Assembly (NCBI GenBank): GCA_963804955.1
Contig: CAWDSQ010000016.1
Span: 64,001 to 128,000 of the forward strand
Direction: 5' to 3'
Origin: an uncultured delta proteobacterium
Lineage (GTDB): Bacteria; Desulfobacterota; WTBG01; CAIYCZ01; CAIRTM01
DNA: 64,000 nucleotides
Position 1 is the first letter of the stretch, and every line of letters begins with the position of its first letter. Below the pieces are notes generated by a model, which did not search any database, was not told the DNA's origin, and saw nothing but the letters and a program-made list of their open reading frames with translations. A program made the position numbers and the translations under genes. Below are positions 612 to 26,258 of this stretch, in pieces.

Positions 612-1296
612 GCGCTGACTTTCGCATATAACAAATTTAGATCTTTATTTTGAAGTATACCTTTTATGATGAAACTTTTGCCAATAATTCTTGCCTCAAC
701 CGCTATAAAAAAGGAGGCTCACCTTCCAGGAAAGACCAACTCTCTCCTGGGCATGAAGCAGTTTCCCCTTTTTATTTTTCATAAAGTTTAGAGGTTTGAT
801 ACGATTCACCAGATGAAGCTCTTTTTTTTAAACTTTTATTGGTATTTGCAAAACCGGGCACGTTACCCCGCTCCCGGGTAGAAGTACCGGTTGCGGTCAG
901 AGTTTACAGCTCCGGGGGGAAATATGACAGCAATTTAATCACGCGTTGCTGATTACCAAATTCAGTTGCGCCTGCCTTATTATTATGGCAGGATTATCCT
1001 TTTATGGATAAACGATTCATTATCAGAAGTATCATAATAATCAAACCGACTACGTGTTGCTTCCGTAAGAGCTGCATAAACGGTTTATGTCGGCAGCTTA
1101 GCCTGTAATGCCTCACTAGCAGCGCTGTTTGTTTTGCCTGCATGTGTTCCACAAAGGGAGATACCCTTTACCGGTTTTGCAGTGTGCTGGTTGCGCACTG
1201 CGCACCGTTTTAAAATCAGGATATGTCGTAACGGACACTGACCGCTCTTCTCTGTGTAAAGCCATTGCGCACATAAACGTATCATTTGGATGCAGT

Positions 1297-1908
1297 ATGA
1301 CCACTGAAAAACAACGACCGGGGTTCGACCTGAAAATGACGGGTGAAGAAATCAATACGCTCCCCGTTGCAGCCTATGAAGGCACGGTGCATGTCGTGCG
1401 CACTGAGGACGCGCTTGAAAAAGCCGTGCATGCTTTGCGCCGGGAAACCGTCCTGGGTTTTGATACGGAGACGAAACCGAATTTTGCACGGGGCGAAAAC
1501 AATCCGCTTTCTCTCATCCAGTTTGCCGGCAGCAGGGCCGCCTACATCATTCAGCTGCGGCATCTGACGTCATGCGCTCCCCTGCTCAAGCTCTTCTCCG
1601 ATGAGCGCATCATAAAGGCCGGCGTGGACATACCGCAGGACATCGTTAAGCTCAAGGAGCGCATGGGGGGAGACTATAAAGGTTTTGTTGATGTCAGTCT
1701 GGCGGCAAAGCAGGCCGGGCTGAAAAATTTCAGCCTGCGGGGGCTCGCAGCCGTTCTGCTTGGCGTGCGCATAACAAAAGGGATGCGGGTATCAAACTGG
1801 GCGCGCGACACGCTGCTGCCGTCACAGATCAAATATGCCGCCACCGATGCCTGGATCAGCCGGGAACTCTACCTGCGGCTGCAGCAGCCGGAGGCCGGCA
1901 GAATATAA
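1297..1908 (+). CDS. 3'-5' exonuclease (DEDDy, WRN/RNase D-like)
   Basis: Motifs VLGFDTET, SLIQFA, IIKAGV and SNW...QIKYAATDAW; start placed at ATG 1297. Confidence 0.9.
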   Translation: MTTEKQRPGFDLKMTGEEINTLPVAAYEGTVHVVRTEDALEKAVHALRRETVLGFDTETKPNFARGENNPLSLIQFAGSRAAYIIQLRHLTSCAPLLKLFSDERIIKAGVDIPQDIVKLKERMGGDYKGFVDVSLAAKQAGLKNFSLRGLAAVLLGVRITKGMRVSNWARDTLLPSQIKYAATDAWISRELYLRLQQPEAGRI

Positions 1909-7252: not shown

Positions 7253-7281
7253 CTGCATGCGCATAGACAGCGGTCATACCC

Positions 7282-7378
7282 GTCTCCTTCCCAAATCCGG
7301 GAGGCGCGGCCGTCGCCGGCCGTACCCTGTCGGTTAGACCTCCTGCGCTACTGGCGCAGGCTGAATAACTCCAGAGAC
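7282..7378 (-). ncRNA. Moco/Tuco RNA motif (riboswitch candidate) lacking P3, i.e. tungsten-cofactor type
   Basis: Minus strand GTCTCT-GGAG[P2]TAACC-GAC-AGGGT[ACGGCCG-GCGA-CGGCCGC]GCCT-CC-CGGATTT-GG-GAAGGAGAC. Has the hallmark GCCTCCCG..TTTGG.AAGGAG and a GNRA-capped P4, and sits upstream of moaA. Confidence 0.88.
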
Positions 7379-7391
7379 TTTCTTCACTTAA

Positions 7392-14658: not shown

Positions 14659-14901
14659 CTACTCGGCCAGAACGGGAAGCAGATAATTAAAACCGTTTTT
14701 GACGGCTTCTTTAGCCTGCTTGCCGCTGATGACCTTCTTCTTCTCAAGATAGTTGACAAGCTTTTCATATCCTTCCAGCAAAATGCGGCGGTGGGTCTTT
14801 TCGTCGACCACGTTCTTGTCTTTCAGATAATCCAGAACGTCGAGCGTCTTGTCGTCTAGGTCTATGAACTTCTTGGCCTGCGCCTGTGTCATGATTGCCA
14901 T
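14659..14901 (-). CDS. 80-aa hypothetical protein, last gene of the AOR operon
   Basis: AAAGGAGA RBS then ATG 14901: MAIMTQAQAKKFIDLDDKTLDVLDYL...; fused to AOR in the ORF track only through a frameshift. Confidence 0.75.
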   Translation of the reverse strand: MAIMTQAQAKKFIDLDDKTLDVLDYLKDKNVVDEKTHRRILLEGYEKLVNYLEKKKVISGKQAKEAVKNGFNYLLPVLAE

Positions 14902-14927
14902 AATATATCTCCTTTCGCTTATCAGAA

Positions 14928-16678
14928 TTAATAGTAGTATTTTTGTTTTTTCTTTCCAGCGTCGGACATATACTTCGGCTCTGAGCGGAGCGAGGTCTTT
15001 TGCAACGTAGTCAAGGCCGAGCATCTTCAGTCTCTTTTCCGAGGGGAAGCCGGTCTTGGCATCCCAGTCACGATACTTGTAGTACTTTTGCAGCATATCG
15101 TTGAGCGGGAAAACGACGCCGACGTTGGTCTGATAGTCCACGCCCTGGGGCATGGGCTCTTTGAGGAAACGCTCGGGAACCGTATCCTCGCGGGCGCCGG
15201 ACATGCAGCGCGTCCAGTACGCTCGTCCAAGCTGGAAAATACGCTCGCCGATCTCCTGGAACTCTTCCTCGGTGAAGTCAAGGCCGCGGTGCAGGCGTTC
15301 AGGTACTCTACCTGATCGGGGGTAAGCACGGCGTATGACCAGTGCGTGGTGAAACAGCACACCTGGGAACGGTGACTTTGTGTAGCCTTCTGGTTTTCTT
15401 CGTCGAGCAGTGCGGGCTTGTTGGCAGTCGTGGTGGGCTTTGCGCCGCGCTCGTAGCCGAGCAGCTTGGTGTTCAGGCCCGTGTACAGAGCGCCTGAAAG
15501 CTCGCAGCGAGCACAGTGAACGAAGATGATCGCAGCCGCCGCGGGTGCCCTGCGCAAATGACAGGCCGTAGCCGAAACCAAGGCCGCGGGGGTCATCGCC
15601 CGGCAGCGTCATGCCGCGGGTTGTGATGCTGTAATAGTGCGCATCTTGGGGCAGGCCCAGTTTGTCGGCAGCACGGTCTGCGCCTTCGGCAAGAATTGCG
15701 CCGAAGCCTTCTCTTTTTGCTATCATGGGGATAAGCTTATCCATAACCTCTTCATTACCCCATTCAAGCTCAAGACCAGCCAGTTCCTGGTGGTGATGAA
15801 GCCTCTCTGATACCATTCCATGGCAGTCGAGATAACACCGCCGCACTCGATGGCATCCATACCGTAATCATTGGTCAGCCGGGCATTGTGCCAGATATCG
15901 TTGGCGTCTTCGATGATACCGCAGCGAGCATGCGTGCTGGGGAACTGCATGCTCGTATTCGGGACCGCCGAACTCTTCACCTGCCCATTTGCCTTCCTGA
16001 TCTGCGTGAAACGGCCGCAACAGATGGGGCATGAAAAGCAGCCTTCGCGGTGCTTCAGCACGGTGGCGGCGATACCCTTCAGATTCTTGGAGCCGATAAC
16101 GCCGCCCGTGCCGGTACGGCCTGCAGCCCGCCAAACGTCATTGAAGGTACAGGCAAAACGCACCATGTTCTCACCTGCGGGGCCGATCAGCATGATGTGA
16201 ATGTCCTCGTCCCCGAGCTCTTCCTTAATCATCTGGTCCGCCTCGCGGGGGAACTTGCCCCAGAGGTGGCGGGCGTCGCGAATCTCGACCTTGTCGTCAT
16301 CGATCCAGATATACACGGGGTTCTTTGCCTTGCCCTGAACGATGATCTGGTCATAGCCGGCGAACTTTACTTCTGCGCCCCAGTGGCCGCCCATGTTGCC
16401 GAATCGCCGAAGCCGCCCGTGAGCGGGCTTTTGCAGGAAACGGTCACGCGGCCCGTTGAGGGGGCTGCGGTGCCGCTGATCGGGGCCCATGCCGAAGCAG
16501 ACGCGCGCTTCGGGATCATAGGGATCCAAGGTGCGCGGGCACCTCGTTATAGATTACGTCTGAATTGAAACCACGGCCGCCGATCCATTTGCGCCGGTAC
16601 TCATAGGAAAGGGGCTCTTTCTTGATTTCACCTGTGGTGAGATTAACTCTGAGTCTTTGTCCTGCCCCATCCGTACAT
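14928..16678 (-). CDS. Tungsten aldehyde:ferredoxin oxidoreductase-family (WOR) catalytic subunit 1; many frameshifts and an apparent internal deletion
   Basis: MYGW.G..LRVNLT, GGHWGAEVKFAGYD, IGPAGEN, AAGRTGTGGVIGSKNLKGIA, CFSCPICC, GGPEYE, DDPRG...TRGGCDH, DTVPERF and YYKYRDWD. Confidence 0.9.
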
Positions 16679-16680
16679 AA

Positions 16681-17187
16681 TTAGGCCTCCTCTCCAACAC
16701 TTAGCGGCTTTAAGTCGTTCTTCCAGTTTTTCTCTGCGCTTGGCCTTGAAGGCGACGGTCGGCGTCGTGTAGGTAGATGGCGCCGCTCGGGCACCAGTCG
16801 GCGCAGACAGGGGCCTTCGGCCCGGCCTTCGCACAGAGTCGCACTTGAAGGCTTTGCCGGTTTTATAGTGCATGTTGATGGCGCCGAAAGGGGCATGCCA
16901 TCGCGCACTCTTTGCAGCCGATGCACTTATTGGCATCGATTTTGGTGATTCCTGCCGCGGCGTCCATGGCGCAGGCGCCGGTGGGGCACACATTGGCGCA
17001 GCGGCGCGTCGGTGCAGGCGTCGCAGCCCACGACAAAGGACTCGCCGAATCTCTCGTTACGAACACATGCGATGCGGGAAACCACCTTGCCGCATTCGCC
17101 GTCATGATACAGGGAACACCCTACGACGCAGCTTCTACAGCCGCTGCATTTTTCCTGGTGGTACACCAAGACTTTTTCATTGCTCAT
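16681..17187 (-). CDS. 4x[4Fe-4S] small subunit (DmsB/WorS/AorA-like); frameshifted
   Basis: CSGCRSCVVGC, CDACTDAP.C..VCP, CIGCKECAMACPF and KAFKCD. Confidence 0.9.
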
Positions 17188-17324
17188 GTCAGTTACCCTC
17201 CTTTCAAAGGGATCAAAAAAAAGAAACTCTAGCCAGTATTGCCTTTAGTTTCCGGTTCCCCCACGGGAACCGTCGGTGAAAAAAAACACCTCCTTTCATT
17301 TTTTTTATTTTTTACAGAAACTCC

Positions 17325-17445
17325 AAAAAAAAGCCTGAAGGCACAGCTGTGCCTTCAGGCTTCCTTTGCAAAATTGGCGGGCCAAGCACACTGCTTGAGC
17401 CTTATCGAGTCCGCTTTAGAGCGGACTCGGAAGTCCTTAAAGTAT
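17325..17445 (-). ncRNA. Candidate variant Moco/Tuco-like riboswitch with overlapping terminator, copy 1 (AOR operon leader)
   Basis: AGGACTTCC-GAGTCCGC-TCTAAA-GCGGACTC-GAT-AAGGC-TCAAGCA-GTG-TGCTTG-GCCC-GC-CAATTTT-GC-AAAGGAAGCCT, continuing into GAAGGCACA-GC-TGTGCCTTCAGGC-T8. Confidence 0.7.
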
Positions 17446-17717
17446 GAGCATGTTTAATTACTTTTTTATGACGCAGAAGTCAATGGTTTTTTCACAACTT
17501 AGAAGGAGGTATATTTCAGCCTGATCAGCACCCATGCCTGTCCATCCAACCCGGGTATCGCACCCGCAAAAGCTCTGTTTGTCGTCATATGTTTTTTTGC
17601 TGCGCAGCTTACATCCTTTCTCTCTGTCCAGCCTTTCGGGAAACCTGCCACAGGCTGATAGCTGGCAGGCTTCATTAGAAGCGGCTTTTATGCAGTGTAT
17701 TTGTCTTTTTTTTCAGG

Positions 17718-18997: not shown

Positions 18998-20296
18998 TCA
19001 GGCGCCTGTCCTTGACACAAACCCGCTCAACTGGTTAACCACAGGGAGAAGCTGCGTCTGAGGCTTTTTGATAAATTCTTTCCACGGCGTCTTTCCGACA
19101 ATAGCACCCCGGACAATGCCTGCTCCGTCCACATTGCCGACAGCCATAAAAGAAACAGGGATGCCGTCTTTCAGCTTTACCTTCTGGTAGATGCTATGAC
19201 TCTTAAAGGTGACTTCTTCAATGTCATCACCCTCTGTCTGAACATCGCCGATAGCAGTTATCCACATCTCGTAGAAGTCAACGCTGTTCATGGGGATATT
19301 GCCCTCATAGGTCCTCTGCTGCCCGGACATGTTGCACGCTGCGATTCTTCCCTGCGCTGCCGCCACTGGCCAGATGGCATTGTATATCCATTCCTTGCTG
19401 ACTATATGACGCGAGCGGCATACATCTCCTGCAGCATAGACATCCTCAACCGTGGTACGCTGGCAATCATCAACAGAGATTATCCGGTCCACCTTAACAT
19501 CTGTGCCTTCAAGAAAGTCCGTGTTTGCTTTAACACCAACAGAGGCAACAATAAAATCAGCTTCTTCTTCTCCGCCGTTTTTATACGTCACAACATACTT
19601 ATTTCCCTGTTTCCGCGTGTCAATAACAGAATTGTGAAGCTCAATATCAAGCAGTTCATGCCGGGTCATCCGTTCCCGAACCCGGGCGCTTGCCTCAAGA
19701 TCAGTCATGCGGCCAAGCACTGTTGGCAGCAGCTCGACTACCTTGACCTGCACTCCCTGCTTCACAAGACCATATGCTGTTTTCAGCCCGACAAATCCTG
19801 CGCCGATAATAATTGCTTTTTTACCCTTCTTTGCCCAGCCTTTCAGTTTGTTTGAATCATCATAATTCCTCATCCCTATAATACCTTCCGGGTCATAGGG
19901 GAAGCTTTTGAGAAAAATGGGTGATGAGCCTGTTGCTACAAGCAGGGTATCATAAGAAATCTTTTTCGTTCTTCCATTCTGTTTTGCATAGACAATCCGG
20001 TTTTTAGCATCGACTTTCTCAGCCCGGGTAGAAAGGTTCAGGTCTATATCACGACCAGTGTACCATTTTTCAGAATGTGACAGAAGGTGGCTCCGGGTAA
20101 CCATACCGCCAAGATAATAGGTAATAAGGCACCGTGAATAAGAGGGCACCGCCTCTTCACCAAGAATAACAATTTTATCTTCAGGATTCAGTGTCCGCAG
20201 AGTATCTGCCGCGGTAACAGCTGCAATGCAGTTACCGATAATAACATGCTGCCGCGCACTTTTTTTTACTTTGGTTTTATTGGCCTGTATTTTCAT
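18998..20296 (-). CDS. FAD-dependent NAD(P)H oxidoreductase (NirB N-terminal / AorC-like)
   Basis: VIIGNCIAA, LLVATGS, IIGAGFVGL and VYAAGDV. Confidence 0.9.
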   Translation of the reverse strand: MKIQANKTKVKKSARQHVIIGNCIAAVTAADTLRTLNPEDKIVILGEEAVPSYSRCLITYYLGGMVTRSHLLSHSEKWYTGRDIDLNLSTRAEKVDAKNRIVYAKQNGRTKKISYDTLLVATGSSPIFLKSFPYDPEGIIGMRNYDDSNKLKGWAKKGKKAIIIGAGFVGLKTAYGLVKQGVQVKVVELLPTVLGRMTDLEASARVRERMTRHELLDIELHNSVIDTRKQGNKYVVTYKNGGEEEADFIVASVGVKANTDFLEGTDVKVDRIISVDDCQRTTVEDVYAAGDVCRSRHIVSKEWIYNAIWPVAAAQGRIAACNMSGQQRTYEGNIPMNSVDFYEMWITAIGDVQTEGDDIEEVTFKSHSIYQKVKLKDGIPVSFMAVGNVDGAGIVRGAIVGKTPWKEFIKKPQTQLLPVVNQLSGFVSRTGA

Positions 20297-20772
20297 CTTC
20301 GTGTTATCCCCCGTATCTCTTTTATTTTTCTATTTCTTCTTTTTTTCACTGTCGTGCTAAAATCATCAAAAAACAGAGCTTCCCTGTCGCATACGGCAAC
20401 GCAGGGAGGATTATCTTTTTCTCCGCAAATCAGCGTGCACTTAAAAGCTTTTTCAAGGCTCATAACCGTCTTTATTGCTCCATGGGGACATACCATGTTG
20501 CACATAAAGCACCCAATGCACCTTTTTTCATCCTGAATAATAATTCCATCGTTGCCGCACTTCAGTGATTCACCAATGCAGGCATCCACGCAGGGTGTGT
20601 CTTCGCAGTGCTTGCACAGGCGAAGGAAAGGCCCCTGCGGGCTCTGGTACACTTTGATAAATGGTGCATACCCGGCAGAGTCGCTGCTTGATTTGCTGCA
20701 TTGTGCAGAGCAGGCGACTTCGCACTGGCGGCACACATCGCACTTATCAGGTCTAAAAACAAATGCTTTCAT
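20293..20772 (-). CDS. 4x[4Fe-4S] protein (CooF/AorA-like)
   Basis: CDVCRQCEVAC, CKHCEDTPCVDAC, CIGCFMCNMVCP and KCTLIC...PPCVAVC. Confidence 0.9.
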   Translation of the reverse strand: MKAFVFRPDKCDVCRQCEVACSAQCSKSSSDSAGYAPFIKVYQSPQGPFLRLCKHCEDTPCVDACIGESLKCGNDGIIIQDEKRCIGCFMCNMVCPHGAIKTVMSLEKAFKCTLICGEKDNPPCVAVCDREALFFDDFSTTVKKRRNRKIKEIRGITRR

Positions 20773-21415
20773 ATGTGTCTCCTCTACTTCAAATTATATT
20801 AATATCCTCTATGGCCATAAGAATACCATAGCTGTAAATTATTAAATGGCTGTCGTACAACTGATTCAAAAGGCGCTACTGTAATTGTACTAACTAAGAT
20901 TTAATCAGGCTTTTTGCGTGGAATACAGCGGGCAGGCTTTTTATCCCAATACCTCGACATTATCCACTTCCAATAAAACTAAGGGCAAGCACATTTGCCA
21001 TGCAGACATCTTTTGGCGCTTACTTAGCATACTAATAGTTTACCATGGCATCGAATATTGTGTCAACACGTAAAATTGTACGGGAACCGCTTACGCGATA
21101 TAAAATATTGATATTACTTGTTTAATATTTAAAAATACCTTCCGGCAAATATTGCAAAGGCCTTATTGTTCCCCAACTTTACCGGAGCGTGTTACAATGA
21201 AATAATGGTTATTCCGGGGAGCTGAAGGCGACGAAGAATCTCGTTCTTTAATCGACACAGCCTCTGAGGGAGAGGAGTAAGGTAAGGGTGTGAAAAAGTT
21301 TATTTTTAATAATTCATGAGCACCCTCTCTTCAAGAGAGGGAAATAATTTTATACATACACATCAGCGGACAACATGCCTCGTAATAGTACGTTTACTCT
21401 GCCGGGCTTTTATGT

Positions 21416-25200: not shown

Positions 25201-25373
25201 CTGCTCTTGATCTCTTCTTCCAGCGCGCGCATCACTTTATCTGCGCCTGCGGCAATTCCGCAGCTGGCGTAGCCCACTGCAATTCGGGGCTTTCCAGGGA
25301 AAATCTTCTTTAACCCTTCGTCTTTAATCTGCTTTAGATATGCTTGATGATGTAGTTTCACTTTTCTTCCCAC
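22215..25373 (-). CDS. NuoF/HydB-like FMN-NADH subunit fused to a GltD-like FAD/NADPH domain
   Basis: LRGRGGAGFPTG, CNADEGDPGA, GAGAFVCGEET and ESCGKCAPCREG, then PCENACP, GAGPAG, GGGNVAMD..YRR and RCLRCD. Confidence 0.93.
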   Translation of the reverse strand: MGRKVKLHHQAYLKQIKDEGLKKIFPGKPRIAVGYASCGIAAGADKVMRALEEEIKSRKLDVVLTKVGCIGYCTREPLVNVSIPDMPMIIYSGVVPEDAKAILDKLVKNDVCREKALCRVERWDHITKGAVLEYGKGFADITAYADVPFFSKQTKIILRNTGFINPEDIDEYIGVGGFSALHTALTAMTPEAIIDEVLKAGLRGRGGAGFPTGQKWKFARNAAGEKKYIICNADEGDPGAYMNRNEMESDPCMLLEGMIIGAYAIGASEGIIYIREEYPLAIKRLQNALKQLRAYGFLGKNILGSGFSFDIIMVKGAGAFVCGEETALISSIEGFAGRSRSRPPFPAEKGLWGKPTNINNVETWCNIPVIISRGGAWFSQTGTETSKGTKVLSLVGKISQAGLAEIAFGTSLKTLVYDIGGGGVEGRQIKAVQTGGPSGGCIPAPYFESPIDYESLTKLGSIMGSGGVVVVDEDTCMVDTARYFVDFTKEESCGKCAPCREGLKHMLALLTDICNGKGKMEDLSVLEELGNLIKKTSLCGLGQSAPNPVLTTLRYFKNEYENHIRNNRCQAGACASLFVAPCENACPINMNIPGYLTLLKEGRIADAYEFILQDNPLPASTGRVCHHPCQGRCRRNEVDDTVSTREVHRFVADYMFNNGKAKKLRKVEPRKLKPTRKKIGIVGAGPAGLTAAYYLARLGHKVTVYDACPSAGGMLTWGIPEFRLPKKVVNQEVELIKKLGVTFKFNTTVGRDKNLRTLKKEHDAIFLAIGAQKESPLRVQGEEALGVLSGVEFLRDVNLGKDVAVGAKTVVIGGGNVAMDSARVAKRLGADVTILYRREKADMPAEEEEISQAEEEGIKIVTLVGPHKILARSGRVKGIIVTRMRPGDYDLAGRRVPVSDNETITYDCDTVIAAIGQVCDSDFIGRIGVTLNRNGTIAVDPFTLETNISGVYAGGDLVTGPLTVSGAMGQGKRFAMAVDKKLTGKDRLSELLKKVRYNNEVSVEPQGGNRNPMPMVSPEARRCSFDEVTLCYPPDVARVEVTRCLRCDVKEG

Positions 25374-25840
25374 TCATATTGTTTCAGAATTTCAGGTAGT
25401 TTTTTAGGCGTTAAATAGCCATAAATAGTGCCGTCAACCATCATCACCGGCGCAAGACTGCAACACCCGAGACAGCGGGTGCTTTCAATCGTAAACAGCT
25501 TGTCATCGGTTGTGATTGACTTTTCATTTCTTTCTTCATGCCTAATCTTTAAAAGATCAAGCATGGCAGCCTTAAGCCTTGGCCCGCCTCGAACATGGCA
25601 ACTTGTACCTTCACAAACGGTGATTATGTGCTTACCCCGGGGTTTCAGGCTGAAGGCAGCATAAAACGTGCAGACGCTGAAGAGCTGAGAAAACGGAACC
25701 CCCATCTTCTCCCCCACATACTGCATTGCTTCTTTTGGCACATACCCTTCCTCTTCCTGAATTGCCTCCAGTGTGGACAAAACCTGCCCGGGCATATCCA
25801 CATACTGCTCAATAATTTTATCCAGTTTTCTTGCATCCAT
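25358..25840 (-). CDS. NuoE/HydC-like [2Fe-2S] subunit
   Basis: VCEGTSCHVRG and RCLGCCSLAPV. Confidence 0.93.
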   Translation of the reverse strand: MDARKLDKIIEQYVDMPGQVLSTLEAIQEEEGYVPKEAMQYVGEKMGVPFSQLFSVCTFYAAFSLKPRGKHIITVCEGTSCHVRGGPRLKAAMLDLLKIRHEERNEKSITTDDKLFTIESTRCLGCCSLAPVMMVDGTIYGYLTPKKLPEILKQYEWEEK

Positions 25841-26078
25841 GGCTTACGTCTCTACTTTTGAATTAATACATTGATAAGACGAACAAATCAAAAAATCAGC
25901 TTTCCATTTATTTGTTCACACCACTCTACAAAGAACACCAGGGGGAATACGCCGGCATTCAAAAATCAGGCTGTCAATGTCTGATATCCTGCGGGTAAGC
26001 GGGGGCGACGAGAACTACCTCTTGTCCGTCACCAGTCCGATCCACCACCCGACAACAAACCATCGCAAAAAACTGTCG

Positions 26079-26197
26079 AAAAAAGCCTGAAGACACATCC
26101 CGATAATCTTCAGGCTTCCTTTGCACTATGGCGGGCCGGATATCTATCCGGCCTTTTCGGCCCACACCTAAAGGAACTCAGAAATCCCTATAAAGTA
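26079..26197 (-). ncRNA. Candidate variant Moco/Tuco-like riboswitch with overlapping terminator, copy 2 (nuoE-like operon leader)
   Basis: AGGGATTTCT-GAG[P2]CC-GAA-AAGGC-CGGATA-GA-TATCCG-GCCC-GC-CATAGT-GC-AAAGGAAGCCT, continuing into GAAGA...TCTTCAGGC-T6. Confidence 0.7.
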
Positions 26198-26229
26198 AGG
26201 TTTTTGTATATTTCAAAATATTAATCGTT

Positions 26230-26258
26230 TGTATATAAAACCAGCGTAACGCTGTCAA
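26230..26258 (-). promoter_or_regulatory. Sigma70-type promoter upstream of leader copy 2
   Basis: TTGACA-N17-TATACA. Confidence 0.6.

Follow-up and report, generated by a model that had tools for sequence, protein, structure and literature searches.

This study concerns a 64,000-nucleotide (nt) stretch of DNA from an uncultured delta proteobacterium (CAIRTM01), positions 64,001-128,000 of contig CAWDSQ010000016.1 (GCA_963804955.1), hereafter the window, and an RNA element on its minus strand, hereafter copy 2. A preliminary description of this DNA had taken copy 2 for the second copy of a variant leader, placed before an operon for NuoE-, NuoF-GltD- and NuoG-like proteins. We found that copy 2 belongs to a family of compact RNAs with extensive covariation, that these RNAs precede tungsten aldehyde oxidoreductases (AORs), formate dehydrogenases (FDHs) or pterin-free redox modules, and that their helix P1 overlaps an intrinsic terminator. 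The reading we favour, with a probability of roughly 0.6, is that copy 2 is a genuine riboswitch of a compact subfamily of the molybdenum cofactor/tungsten cofactor (Moco/Tuco) class, heading a BfuCBA-like operon and working by cofactor-ON antitermination.

Conserved structure of the RNA element

Two covariance models were used: R1, built from copies 1 and 3 of the source genome only, with copy 2 itself left out, and R2, built from 35 sequences of which copy 2 is one. Copy 2 scored 56.2 bits against R1 (E = 1.6e-14 genome-wide) and 82.1 bits against R2 (E = 1.2e-21 in the window). All conserved blocks that the preliminary description had named as common to copies 1 and 2 were present on the minus strand (Table 1). 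It was likewise right that P4 and the terminator loop differ in sequence between the two copies while pairing is kept: the P4 arms read CCGGAUA/UAUCCGG in copy 2 and CAAGCA/UGCUUG in copy 1, and are intact in both.

For the structure test the 35 full matches were aligned to R1, so that the alignment is fitted to the model. Across the aligned RNAs 91.6% of the cells were paired as compared to 75.9% in shuffles, and changes on both sides were seen in 23 of the 34 pairs, which none of 500 shuffles attained; when partner columns were slid by 1-3 positions, pairing dropped to 26-53%. Covariation was found in all seven pairs of P2, in six of nine in P4 and in nine of eleven in the terminator, and the two base pairs (bp) of P5, GC..GC, were invariant (35/35). 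A model-free control (MAFFT and RNAalifold) recovered P2, P4 and the terminator, with compensation in 18 of 27 pairs, and the orthologue of copy 2 in a related genome (G020) carries compensatory changes in P4 and the terminator. These results support the earlier view that copy 2 is no plain DNA repeat but a structured, cis-regulatory RNA in which pairing is under selection.

The promoter-like sequence TTGACA-N17-TATACA that had been described before the element is literally present at 26258-26230. From this site through the start of the RNA the orthologous locus of G020 is nearly identical, although the whole 450-nt alignment is just 84% identical. The site was not listed by the promoter scan because the rule of the scan demands T at the sixth -10 position; similarly, the terminator of copy 2 was not listed because its 11-nt loop exceeds the limit of 3-8 nt. 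RNAfold on the 3' part gave this terminator a 16-bp stem followed by six U, overlapping the P1 3' strand.

Distribution of the family

BLAST together with R1 revealed four copies in the source genome. Besides copy 2, copy 1 precedes genes for a WorS-like ferredoxin and an AOR, copy 3 (contig C13) a selenocysteine FDH, and the divergent copy 4 (contig C5) a lone AOR, the second AOR of the genome to be headed by this RNA class. Copy 4 (L018 1501-1634; G000:C5:146277-146410) scored 37 bits with R2 and has an A-A mismatch in P1; its counterpart in G003 (L156) is a good family member with 60 bits.

In 61 genomes scanned, R1 matches were obtained in 14 of the 16 genomes of the organism's own family (f1) and in all four of a sister family (f2), and the RNA family thus occurs in 18 out of 20 genomes from a single order of uncultured Thermodesulfobacteriota. 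R1 found none in the next two families (0/8 and 0/11 genomes), and the few more distant R1 matches proved upon inspection to be terminators only or ordinary Moco RNAs. Matches of R1 or R2 in G051, G052, G150, G183 and part of L162 were likewise rejected as terminator-only or spurious. An exact-pattern scan of the genomes of 185,579 species returned 107 stretches, 80 of which were examined; 15 of these were real as judged by R1 and the rest were chance matches in GC-rich genomes. All 15 lie in metagenome-assembled genomes titled delta-proteobacterium, Deltaproteobacteria, Thermodesulfobacteriota or Proteobacteria.

In a tree of the 35 RNAs (short alignment, without support values) copy 2 grouped with the nuoE copy of G020 and apart from copy 1, copy 1 grouped with the WorS-AOR copy of G002, and copy 3 fell among the FDH copies of its genus. 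The RNAs thus group by downstream gene rather than by genome, and we therefore regard the copies as old paralogues kept with their genes, not as recent repeats. Tandem pairs of complete aptamer-terminator units before a single AOR operon were also seen, in L028 (1360-1483 and 1501-1624; G013) and in L227 and L229, the latter two from two genomes of another family.

Relation to the Moco/Tuco riboswitch

Copy 2 gave no match to the Moco/Tuco family of Rfam (RF01055) at E<=10 in a 181-nt scan. Copy 1, in turn, aligned with RF01055 over its whole length; the score was 21.1 bits against a cut-off of 36, and P1, P2, P4 and P5 were in register with P3 absent. Among 20 family loci compared with this model seven scored 23-37 bits, and one of the 20 reached the Rfam gathering threshold of 36. 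Alignments that are end to end but low in score lead us to conclude that the family is homologous to the Moco/Tuco riboswitch, at or below the edge of detection. As judged by this sequence comparison, we are dealing with a true member of a compact, P3-less subfamily of RF01055 that mostly does not reach the standard threshold. Scans with other Rfam families, at curated and permissive thresholds, gave sRNA and miRNA matches that covered terminator hairpins only, and the Moco-II motif (listed in PMC2864571) had no match in any Rfam scan.

The compact RNAs have the helices P1, P2, P4 and P5 in common with the P3-less class of RF01055 (Regulski et al. 2008, PMC2408646; P3 is missing from 58 of the 176 original members), and in addition the segments CCGAG, CGAuA(A/G)GG and AAAGGA, although copy 2 reads CUGAG where the family and RF01055 have CCGAG. 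Placement upstream of genes linked to the pterin cofactor is also the same, with copy 2 itself preceding a pterin-free partner module. The differences lie in the core and in the peripheral helices. In P5 the compact RNAs have CCCGCC..GC for the consensus CCUCCC..GG, that is, the first pair is flipped, G-C for C-G; P1 is CUUCC/GGAAG for CUCC/GGAG, and CGA(U/A)AAGG replaces ..AGGG of the consensus. As to P2, it is a simple hairpin of 5-8 bp without the internal loop of RF01055, P4 lacks the GAAA loop and its loops vary among the 35 RNAs, and the terminator abuts P1 in a probable ON layout, unlike in the P3-less class. The docking of a GNRA tetraloop of P4 into a receptor in P2 has been described for most, not all, members (PMC2408646).

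The flipped P5 also occurs in the Tuco riboswitches of WOR1 operons from E. limosum, M. thermoacetica and Faecalicatena (PMC11725836), which read ..CUGCC..GCAAAGGAG or ..CUGCU..GCAAAGGAAG; the M. thermoacetica RNA moreover has CUUCC/GGAAG, and these RNAs likewise control tungsten AOR operons with BfuABC-type subunits. In the same alignment (SI file 1 of PMC11725836) the WOR1 RNAs read ..GC(A/G)AAGGA.., and the RNAs of tupABC, fetABC1/2 and focA read ..UUCC..UUUGA(A/G)AAG.., which is UC..GA and unflipped; the available text of that paper makes no comment on this difference. The WOR1 RNAs differ from the compact ones in that their P2 is long, the P4 tetraloop is present and RF01055 annotates them (PMC11725836). 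In the openly accessible papers covered by our literature search no earlier description of a flipped-core subtype was found.

A long form of the flipped core was recovered with R2 in two other families of the phylum (nine RNAs in a sample of 151 genomes). These RNAs (L224, L227, L228, L229, L238, L239 and L245) have the same core, YGCC N5-6 UUGCAAAGGAAG, and the same P1 as the compact family, and as in the latter the targets are AOR and selenocysteine FDH genes, the terminator overlaps P1 and tandem copies occur; unlike in the compact RNAs, P2 has stayed long and the P4 loop is structured. The RF01055 cut-off was passed by six of these nine RNAs, one scored 35.6 bits and two had no match (scores 35.6-54.6 bits).

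Two cores and two sets of genes

The genes behind the flipped and the ordinary core clearly differ, and it should be underlined that the counts come from related genomes and do not represent independent events. With regard to the 35 compact RNAs, 21 (20 operons) stand before a WorS-like ferredoxin and an AOR, five before an FDH, three before a lone AOR, two before a ferredoxin with an AorC-like flavoprotein and two before a NuoE-like gene, and two have no downstream DNA. None of the compact RNAs with readable downstream DNA precedes cofactor synthesis or transport genes. The nine long-form RNAs are found before an AOR (six RNAs in four operons, two of them tandem) or an FDH (three).

Ordinary RF01055 RNAs were present in 20 of 21 genomes (that of the window and 20 relatives), with up to 10 per genome, and the core was CC..GG in all 32 examined (26 by pattern, six by eye). 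The first gene behind 29 such RNAs of the relatives encodes MoaA (6), a ModA-type binding protein (4), PBP_like_2 (2), a porin (4), MoCF_biosynth (2), a protein of the xanthine dehydrogenase family (6), an AOR (2) or a NiFe hydrogenase small subunit (1), or has no Pfam match (2). The three ordinary RNAs of the source genome precede ModA-like, XDH-FAD-like and MoaA genes, as read from the sequence, and five ordinary-core RNAs among the weaker R2 matches (60-77 bits) stand before MoaA, tungstate/molybdate-type binding proteins and similar genes. We consider it possible, though we would not bet on it, that the GC..GC P5 with the GGAAG P1 marks a separate aptamer class within the one Moco/Tuco family, for tungsten enzymes (AOR/WOR, FDH) and pterin-free modules, cofactor-ON and probably responding to another ligand state (tungsten or mature form) than the ordinary-core P3-less RNAs, which would be OFF switches.

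Several further observations were made on these RNAs. The sole Rfam match in the window at curated thresholds was an ordinary-core, P3-less Moco RNA at 7268-7388 on the minus strand (38.5 bits), 64 nt upstream of moaA, and two more ordinary Moco RNAs lie just past the end of the window on the same contig, before modA-like and xanthine-dehydrogenase-family genes. L042 contains two ordinary-core Moco RNAs in tandem (896-1302, minus strand; 70.7 and 65.9 bits) that face away from a compact RNA (1501-1625, plus strand) and AOR 200 nt off on the other strand, so that both classes share one intergenic region. In L195, L196, L212, L213, L216 and L010 ordinary-core RNAs with OFF-type terminators precede operons of the xanthine dehydrogenase family (Mo-hydroxylases); it is odd that a molybdoenzyme should be repressed by the class of cofactor that it uses itself. 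Finally, in L013, L020, L022, L045 and L239 SECIS_3 matches below the threshold (32-33 bits) coincide exactly with the in-frame TGA of RNA-controlled FDH genes, which is consistent with selenocysteine FDHs.

Switch design

When folded alone, the terminator stem takes in GGAAG, the 3' strand of P1, in 35 of 35 compact RNAs, and there is no spacer between P1 and terminator in any of them. Moreover, in 29 of the 35 a GG lies no more than 4 nt before the 5' strand of P1 (in copy 2 it is GGG), and this GG can pair with the CC that follows GGAAG and is itself part of the terminator base; an extended P1 would therefore compete with the terminator for AAGCC. In the long-form RNAs the 3' arm of the terminator, CUCUUCC, repeats the whole P1 5' strand, making P1 and terminator mutually exclusive there, whereas the overlap in the compact RNAs amounts to about 5 nt only. 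The long-form layout is the classic ON layout, as in the adenine pbuE switch. The ordinary-core RNAs have a separate terminator 20-35 nt further on, the 3' arm of which, CACGGAAC, can pair with CCCGUG of the aptamer (by eye); this is the usual OFF layout.

From the sharing of P1 with the terminator, and from the layout of the long-form RNAs, we infer that cofactor binding steadies P1 and lets transcription run on. The aptamer of copy 2, in the 5' leader of the BfuCBA-like operon, keeps P1, a short P2, P4 and a 2-bp P5 with a WOR-type core, and GGAAGCC, the P1 3' strand with its 2-bp extension, doubles as the base of the terminator. Without ligand the terminator would form and transcription stop. 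With the pterin cofactor bound, most likely in the tungsten form, P1 would hold AAGCC, the terminator would lose its pairs on the side of the U tract, and read-through would follow. By this logic the cell would make tungsten enzymes (AOR, FDH) and their pterin-free electron-transfer modules only if it has cofactor at its disposal.

Condition of copy 2 and alternative explanations

Certain features of copy 2 and its orthologues weigh against the switch proposed above. Its P2, already noted as weak in the preliminary description, has a folding energy of -0.9 kcal/mol and is the weakest of all 35 (-2.0 to -14.5 in the rest). The penalty for forcing P1 is 11.1 kcal/mol, whereas among the other 34 RNAs the median is 4.0 and none exceeds 8.8, because the altered P2 strand UUCCUUU pairs with AAAGGAA in a stable predicted competing fold that leaves the terminator intact. 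Folded by itself, the aptamer part is no more stable than shuffles (z -1.1). The 238-nt spacer to the start codon (ATG at 25840; 39-182 nt in most other copies, and 323 nt at the most, where the RNA is the upstream one of two tandem units) might contain a second promoter. Outside the source genome, no RNA of this kind was seen at the orthologous operons of G006 and G009 (73-82% protein identity), not even in scans with the filters off, G007 has a degraded relic without P1, and the G020 copy deviates where the family is otherwise invariant (GAU, GCCAGGG), its U tract being poor as well. The absence or decay at the operons of G006, G009 and G007 tells us that the link between RNA and operon is old but not always kept. 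In the same-genus genomes (76-90% complete) the operon was not found at more than 42% identity.

The weak P2, the P1 penalty, the losses elsewhere and the long, partly conserved spacer are all in line with a different explanation, which we regard as doubtful yet worth serious attention, namely that copy 2 is a decaying relic, a ligand-blind constitutive terminator or attenuator, with the operon driven from a start in the spacer or by leaky read-through. Nevertheless, the invariant core is intact except for one C-to-U change that gives a U-G pair in P1, P4 (-13.9 kcal/mol) and the terminator are perfect and among the best of the family, and the core has stayed so although the locus is only 84% identical to its G020 orthologue, which argues for continuing constraint. 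The promoter scan called no sigma-70-like site in the minus-strand spacer. Furthermore, P2 seems to vary among close strains, since a related environmental contig (X2) has an intermediate P2, UUCCGU/GUGGAG; the G020 orthologue (L046) has a sound one, UUCCG/CGGAG, and a further contig (X4) agrees with 26079-26157 and ends before P2. Assembly errors in this genome could also exaggerate the defect. With its degenerate P2, copy 2 may be a weak or partly locked switch.

A functional riboswitch that turns the operon OFF, the bound aptamer either stacking on the terminator and favouring it or blocking an unrecognised antiterminator, appears rather unlikely. Three points speak for it and against antitermination: most described Moco/Tuco riboswitches repress (PMC2408646), the WOR1 riboswitch of E. 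limosum was read as translational and as repressing on ligand binding (PMC11725836), and the 5-bp P1 can coexist with the GCC..GGC stem in constrained folds, the overlap of P1 with the functional terminator being limited to the 5 nt or so of AAGCC. On the other hand, outside P1 the 35 sequences showed no conserved segment that could serve either arm of the terminator as an antiterminator partner, P1 and terminator exclude each other in the long form, the layout of the OFF-type ordinary-core RNAs in these genomes is a different one, with a spacer, and to repress tungsten enzymes when cofactor is plentiful would probably make little physiological sense. As a further difference, WorSL and WorABC form one operon in E. 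limosum (PMC11725836), while here the Bfu-type genes and the WorS-AOR genes stand in two operons, and each operon has an RNA and a terminator to itself. That the leader senses no ligand at all, being a protein-bound repeat or a mobile or duplicated DNA segment carrying a terminator, is highly improbable: the terminator arm GCCUG..CAGGC is indeed unusually conserved across genera and the ligand is read from sequence, but the end-to-end homology to RF01055 with the same helices, the extensive covariation, the constant position sense-upstream of cofactor-dependent enzymes or their partners, the grouping by downstream gene and the tandem arrangements typical of riboswitches all argue otherwise.

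Two side observations concern the regions discussed here. About 60-100 nt directly past the terminator (25980-26078, minus strand) are well conserved with G020, CAG.UUUUU...AUGGUUUGUUGU.GG.UGGUGGAU; a small open reading frame in the spacer was considered and rejected, the differences from G020 being unlike coding conservation by eye. The G007 relic (L186 226-367) lies upstream of the orthologous nuoE operon and scores 18-23 bits, with P2 and the GCC block recognisable and GCAAAGGAAG lost.

The downstream operon as a possible partner of tungsten enzymes

Pfam and PDB matches bear out the earlier reading that a NuoE / NuoF-GltD / NuoG-like operon without a pterin-binding subunit stands behind copy 2 (Table 1). 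With a NuoE-like C subunit, a NuoF-like B subunit (FMN, NADH_4Fe-4S) and an A subunit like the N-terminal part of NuoG in one operon, it is a module of the BfuABC/WorABC type. The B subunit matches 9n5u_B, 7t2r_B and 9mqx_B with residues 30-578 (BfuB proteins including WorB, E 1e-170) and 9bov_A, 8oh5_C and 9n5u_A with residues 579-1050. In the solved complexes 9bov, 8oh5 and 9n5u the GltD/NfnB-like FAD domain is on the A subunit, and here it is on B; this fusion suggests a Wor/Nfn-like hybrid with an extra NADPH site. The A subunit is closest to WorA (9mqx_A; E 1.1e-40, residues 4-256 against 5-242 of 247), and its four C-terminal zinc-finger cysteines align with those of WorA and are invariant in five orthologues. 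The 167-aa ferredoxin encoded before the AOR behind copy-1-type RNAs is closest to WorS (9mqx_E, E 8e-34).

The operon therefore resembles WorABCSL of A. mobile (PDB 9MQX; PMC12318220) in its C-, B- and A-type Bfu subunits, in a short A subunit that aligns with full-length WorA and carries the four C-terminal cysteines, and in the WorS-type ferredoxin, which is here found beside the AOR behind copy 1 types. It differs in the additional GltD/NfnB-like FAD domain of the B subunit and in that WorS and WorL lie outside the operon. In WorABCSL the zinc finger and terminal helix of WorA plug the bifurcating module onto the WorS/WorL 'nanowire' (PMC12318220), and a precedent for the regulatory arrangement is wor1SLXABC of E. 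limosum, which stands behind an RF01055 riboswitch (PMC11725836).

The preliminary description had seen in the operon the electron-transfer partner of the AOR behind copy 1, co-regulated with it. The WorA-type A subunit and the WorS-like ferredoxin favour this view, as does a second type of partner: genes for an AorC-like flavoprotein and a polyferredoxin (AorA-like) that follow in the window carry their own compact RNA in G003 (L040) and G018 (L034). Two kinds of pterin-free AOR partner modules under one RNA class fit an electron-transfer partner. In the window no riboswitch was found with R1 and R2 in the 644-nt gap before this pair (20773-21415), in which the pair (18998-20772) has its own promoter-like site. 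Speaking of a single AOR does not hold, since the genome has 24 AOR-domain matches; the RNA precedes only two AOR genes, and three WorS-like genes lie beside AORs. The orthologous operons without RNA in G006 and G009, and frameshifts in the AOR operon of copy 1, also count against the pairing as first proposed. In summary, it is plausible, with WorABCSL as a structural precedent, that the operon of copy 2 is an electron-transfer partner of tungsten AORs, and the shared RNA class suggests that the operons behind it may be co-regulated.

With regard to the frameshifts, the WorS-AOR operon of copy 1 (14659-17187, minus strand) has about 11 single-base insertions within some 800 nt when compared with the orthologue in G002 (88% identity), and beyond them, near 16060-15870, sequence has been rearranged or deleted. 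No frameshift was seen in nuoF-gltD, a neighbouring gene of 3.2 kb. The defects represent either a local assembly error or decay to a pseudogene. A ModA-like gene behind an ordinary Moco RNA (L009; G000:C16:132528-135649) is likewise broken up over overlapping frames, which again points to indel errors in the assembly.

Table 1. Features of the copy 2 locus and its surroundings in the window. Blocks and strands on the minus strand are given in reading direction within the description.
Feature	Position	Strand	Basis or remark
Whole RNA element, copy 2 (compact flipped-P5 Moco/Tuco-type aptamer and terminator)	26074..26202	-	R1 and R2 matches (scores in text)
Promoter-like site: TTGACA 26258-26253, 17-nt spacer, TATACA 26235-26230	26230..26258	-	read from sequence; putative
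Block UACUUUA..AGGG	26196-26186	-	
P1 5' strand UUUCU (26184-26180), preceded by GGG (26188-26186)	26180..26188	-	model alignment
Block GAG	26179-26177	-	
P2 region, degenerate in copy 2 (GUUCCUUUAGGUGUGGG)	26160..26176	-	-0.9 kcal/mol; non-standard pairs in model alignment
Block GAAAAGGC	26158-26151	-	
P4 hairpin GGCCGGAUA-GA-UAUCCGGCC	26134..26153	-	-13.9 kcal/mol
Block GCCCGCCA	26136-26129	-	
Core: C, P5 GC (26132-26131)..GC (26124-26123), AAA, P1 3' strand GGAAG (26119-26115)	26115..26133	-	
Block UGCAAAGGAAGCCUGAAG	26125-26108	-	
Intrinsic terminator, stem AAGGAAGCCUGAAGAU to GUCUUCAGGCUUUUUU, core stem GCC..GGC, six U (26084-26079)	26079..26121	-	
Block CUUCAGGCUUUUUU	26092-26079	-	
Spacer from U tract to start codon, 238 nt	25841..26078	-	
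NuoE/BfuC-like [2Fe-2S] subunit	25358..25840	-	PF01257, E 1.5e-45
NuoF/BfuB-like FMN subunit fused to GltD/NfnB-like FAD domain, 1052 aa	22215..25373	-	Pfam, PDB
Short NuoG/BfuA-like subunit of WorA type, C-terminal 4-Cys motif, 263 aa	21416..22207	-	9mqx_A
Polyferredoxin	20293-20772	-	
AorC-like flavoprotein	18998-20296	-	8c0z_E, E 1.5e-41
Copy 1 of the same RNA, before WorS-like ferredoxin and AOR (14659-17187)	17322..17451	-	RF01055 21.1 bits

Implications

RF01055 at its threshold misses the compact RNA class, and the tungsten-enzyme regulons of a whole order of uncultured anaerobes are therefore under-annotated. The most interesting lead is the association of the flipped core with tungsten enzymes and of the ordinary core with synthesis and uptake. 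The split is clean in our sample, with 32 ordinary-core RNAs mostly on synthesis, transport and Mo-hydroxylase genes (two on AORs) and 35 compact and nine long flipped-core RNAs on AORs, FDHs and redox partners, and it is visible as well in the available part of the published Firmicute alignment (PMC11725836). How Mo and W cofactors are discriminated, and why some of these switches should activate, is an old open question for which the core split offers a testable handle. If the flipped core does define a class of its own, the feature looked for since 2008 as the discriminator would lie in the P5/P1 core and not in P3, the compact form would be its minimal version with about 85 nt of aptamer, and the ordinary-core RNAs of the same genomes would turn OFF pterin synthesis, Mo/W uptake and Mo-hydroxylases. 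Moreover, a cofactor riboswitch before an operon without a cofactor-binding subunit provides a link at the level of the regulon, which may be used to assign partners to orphan tungsten enzymes.

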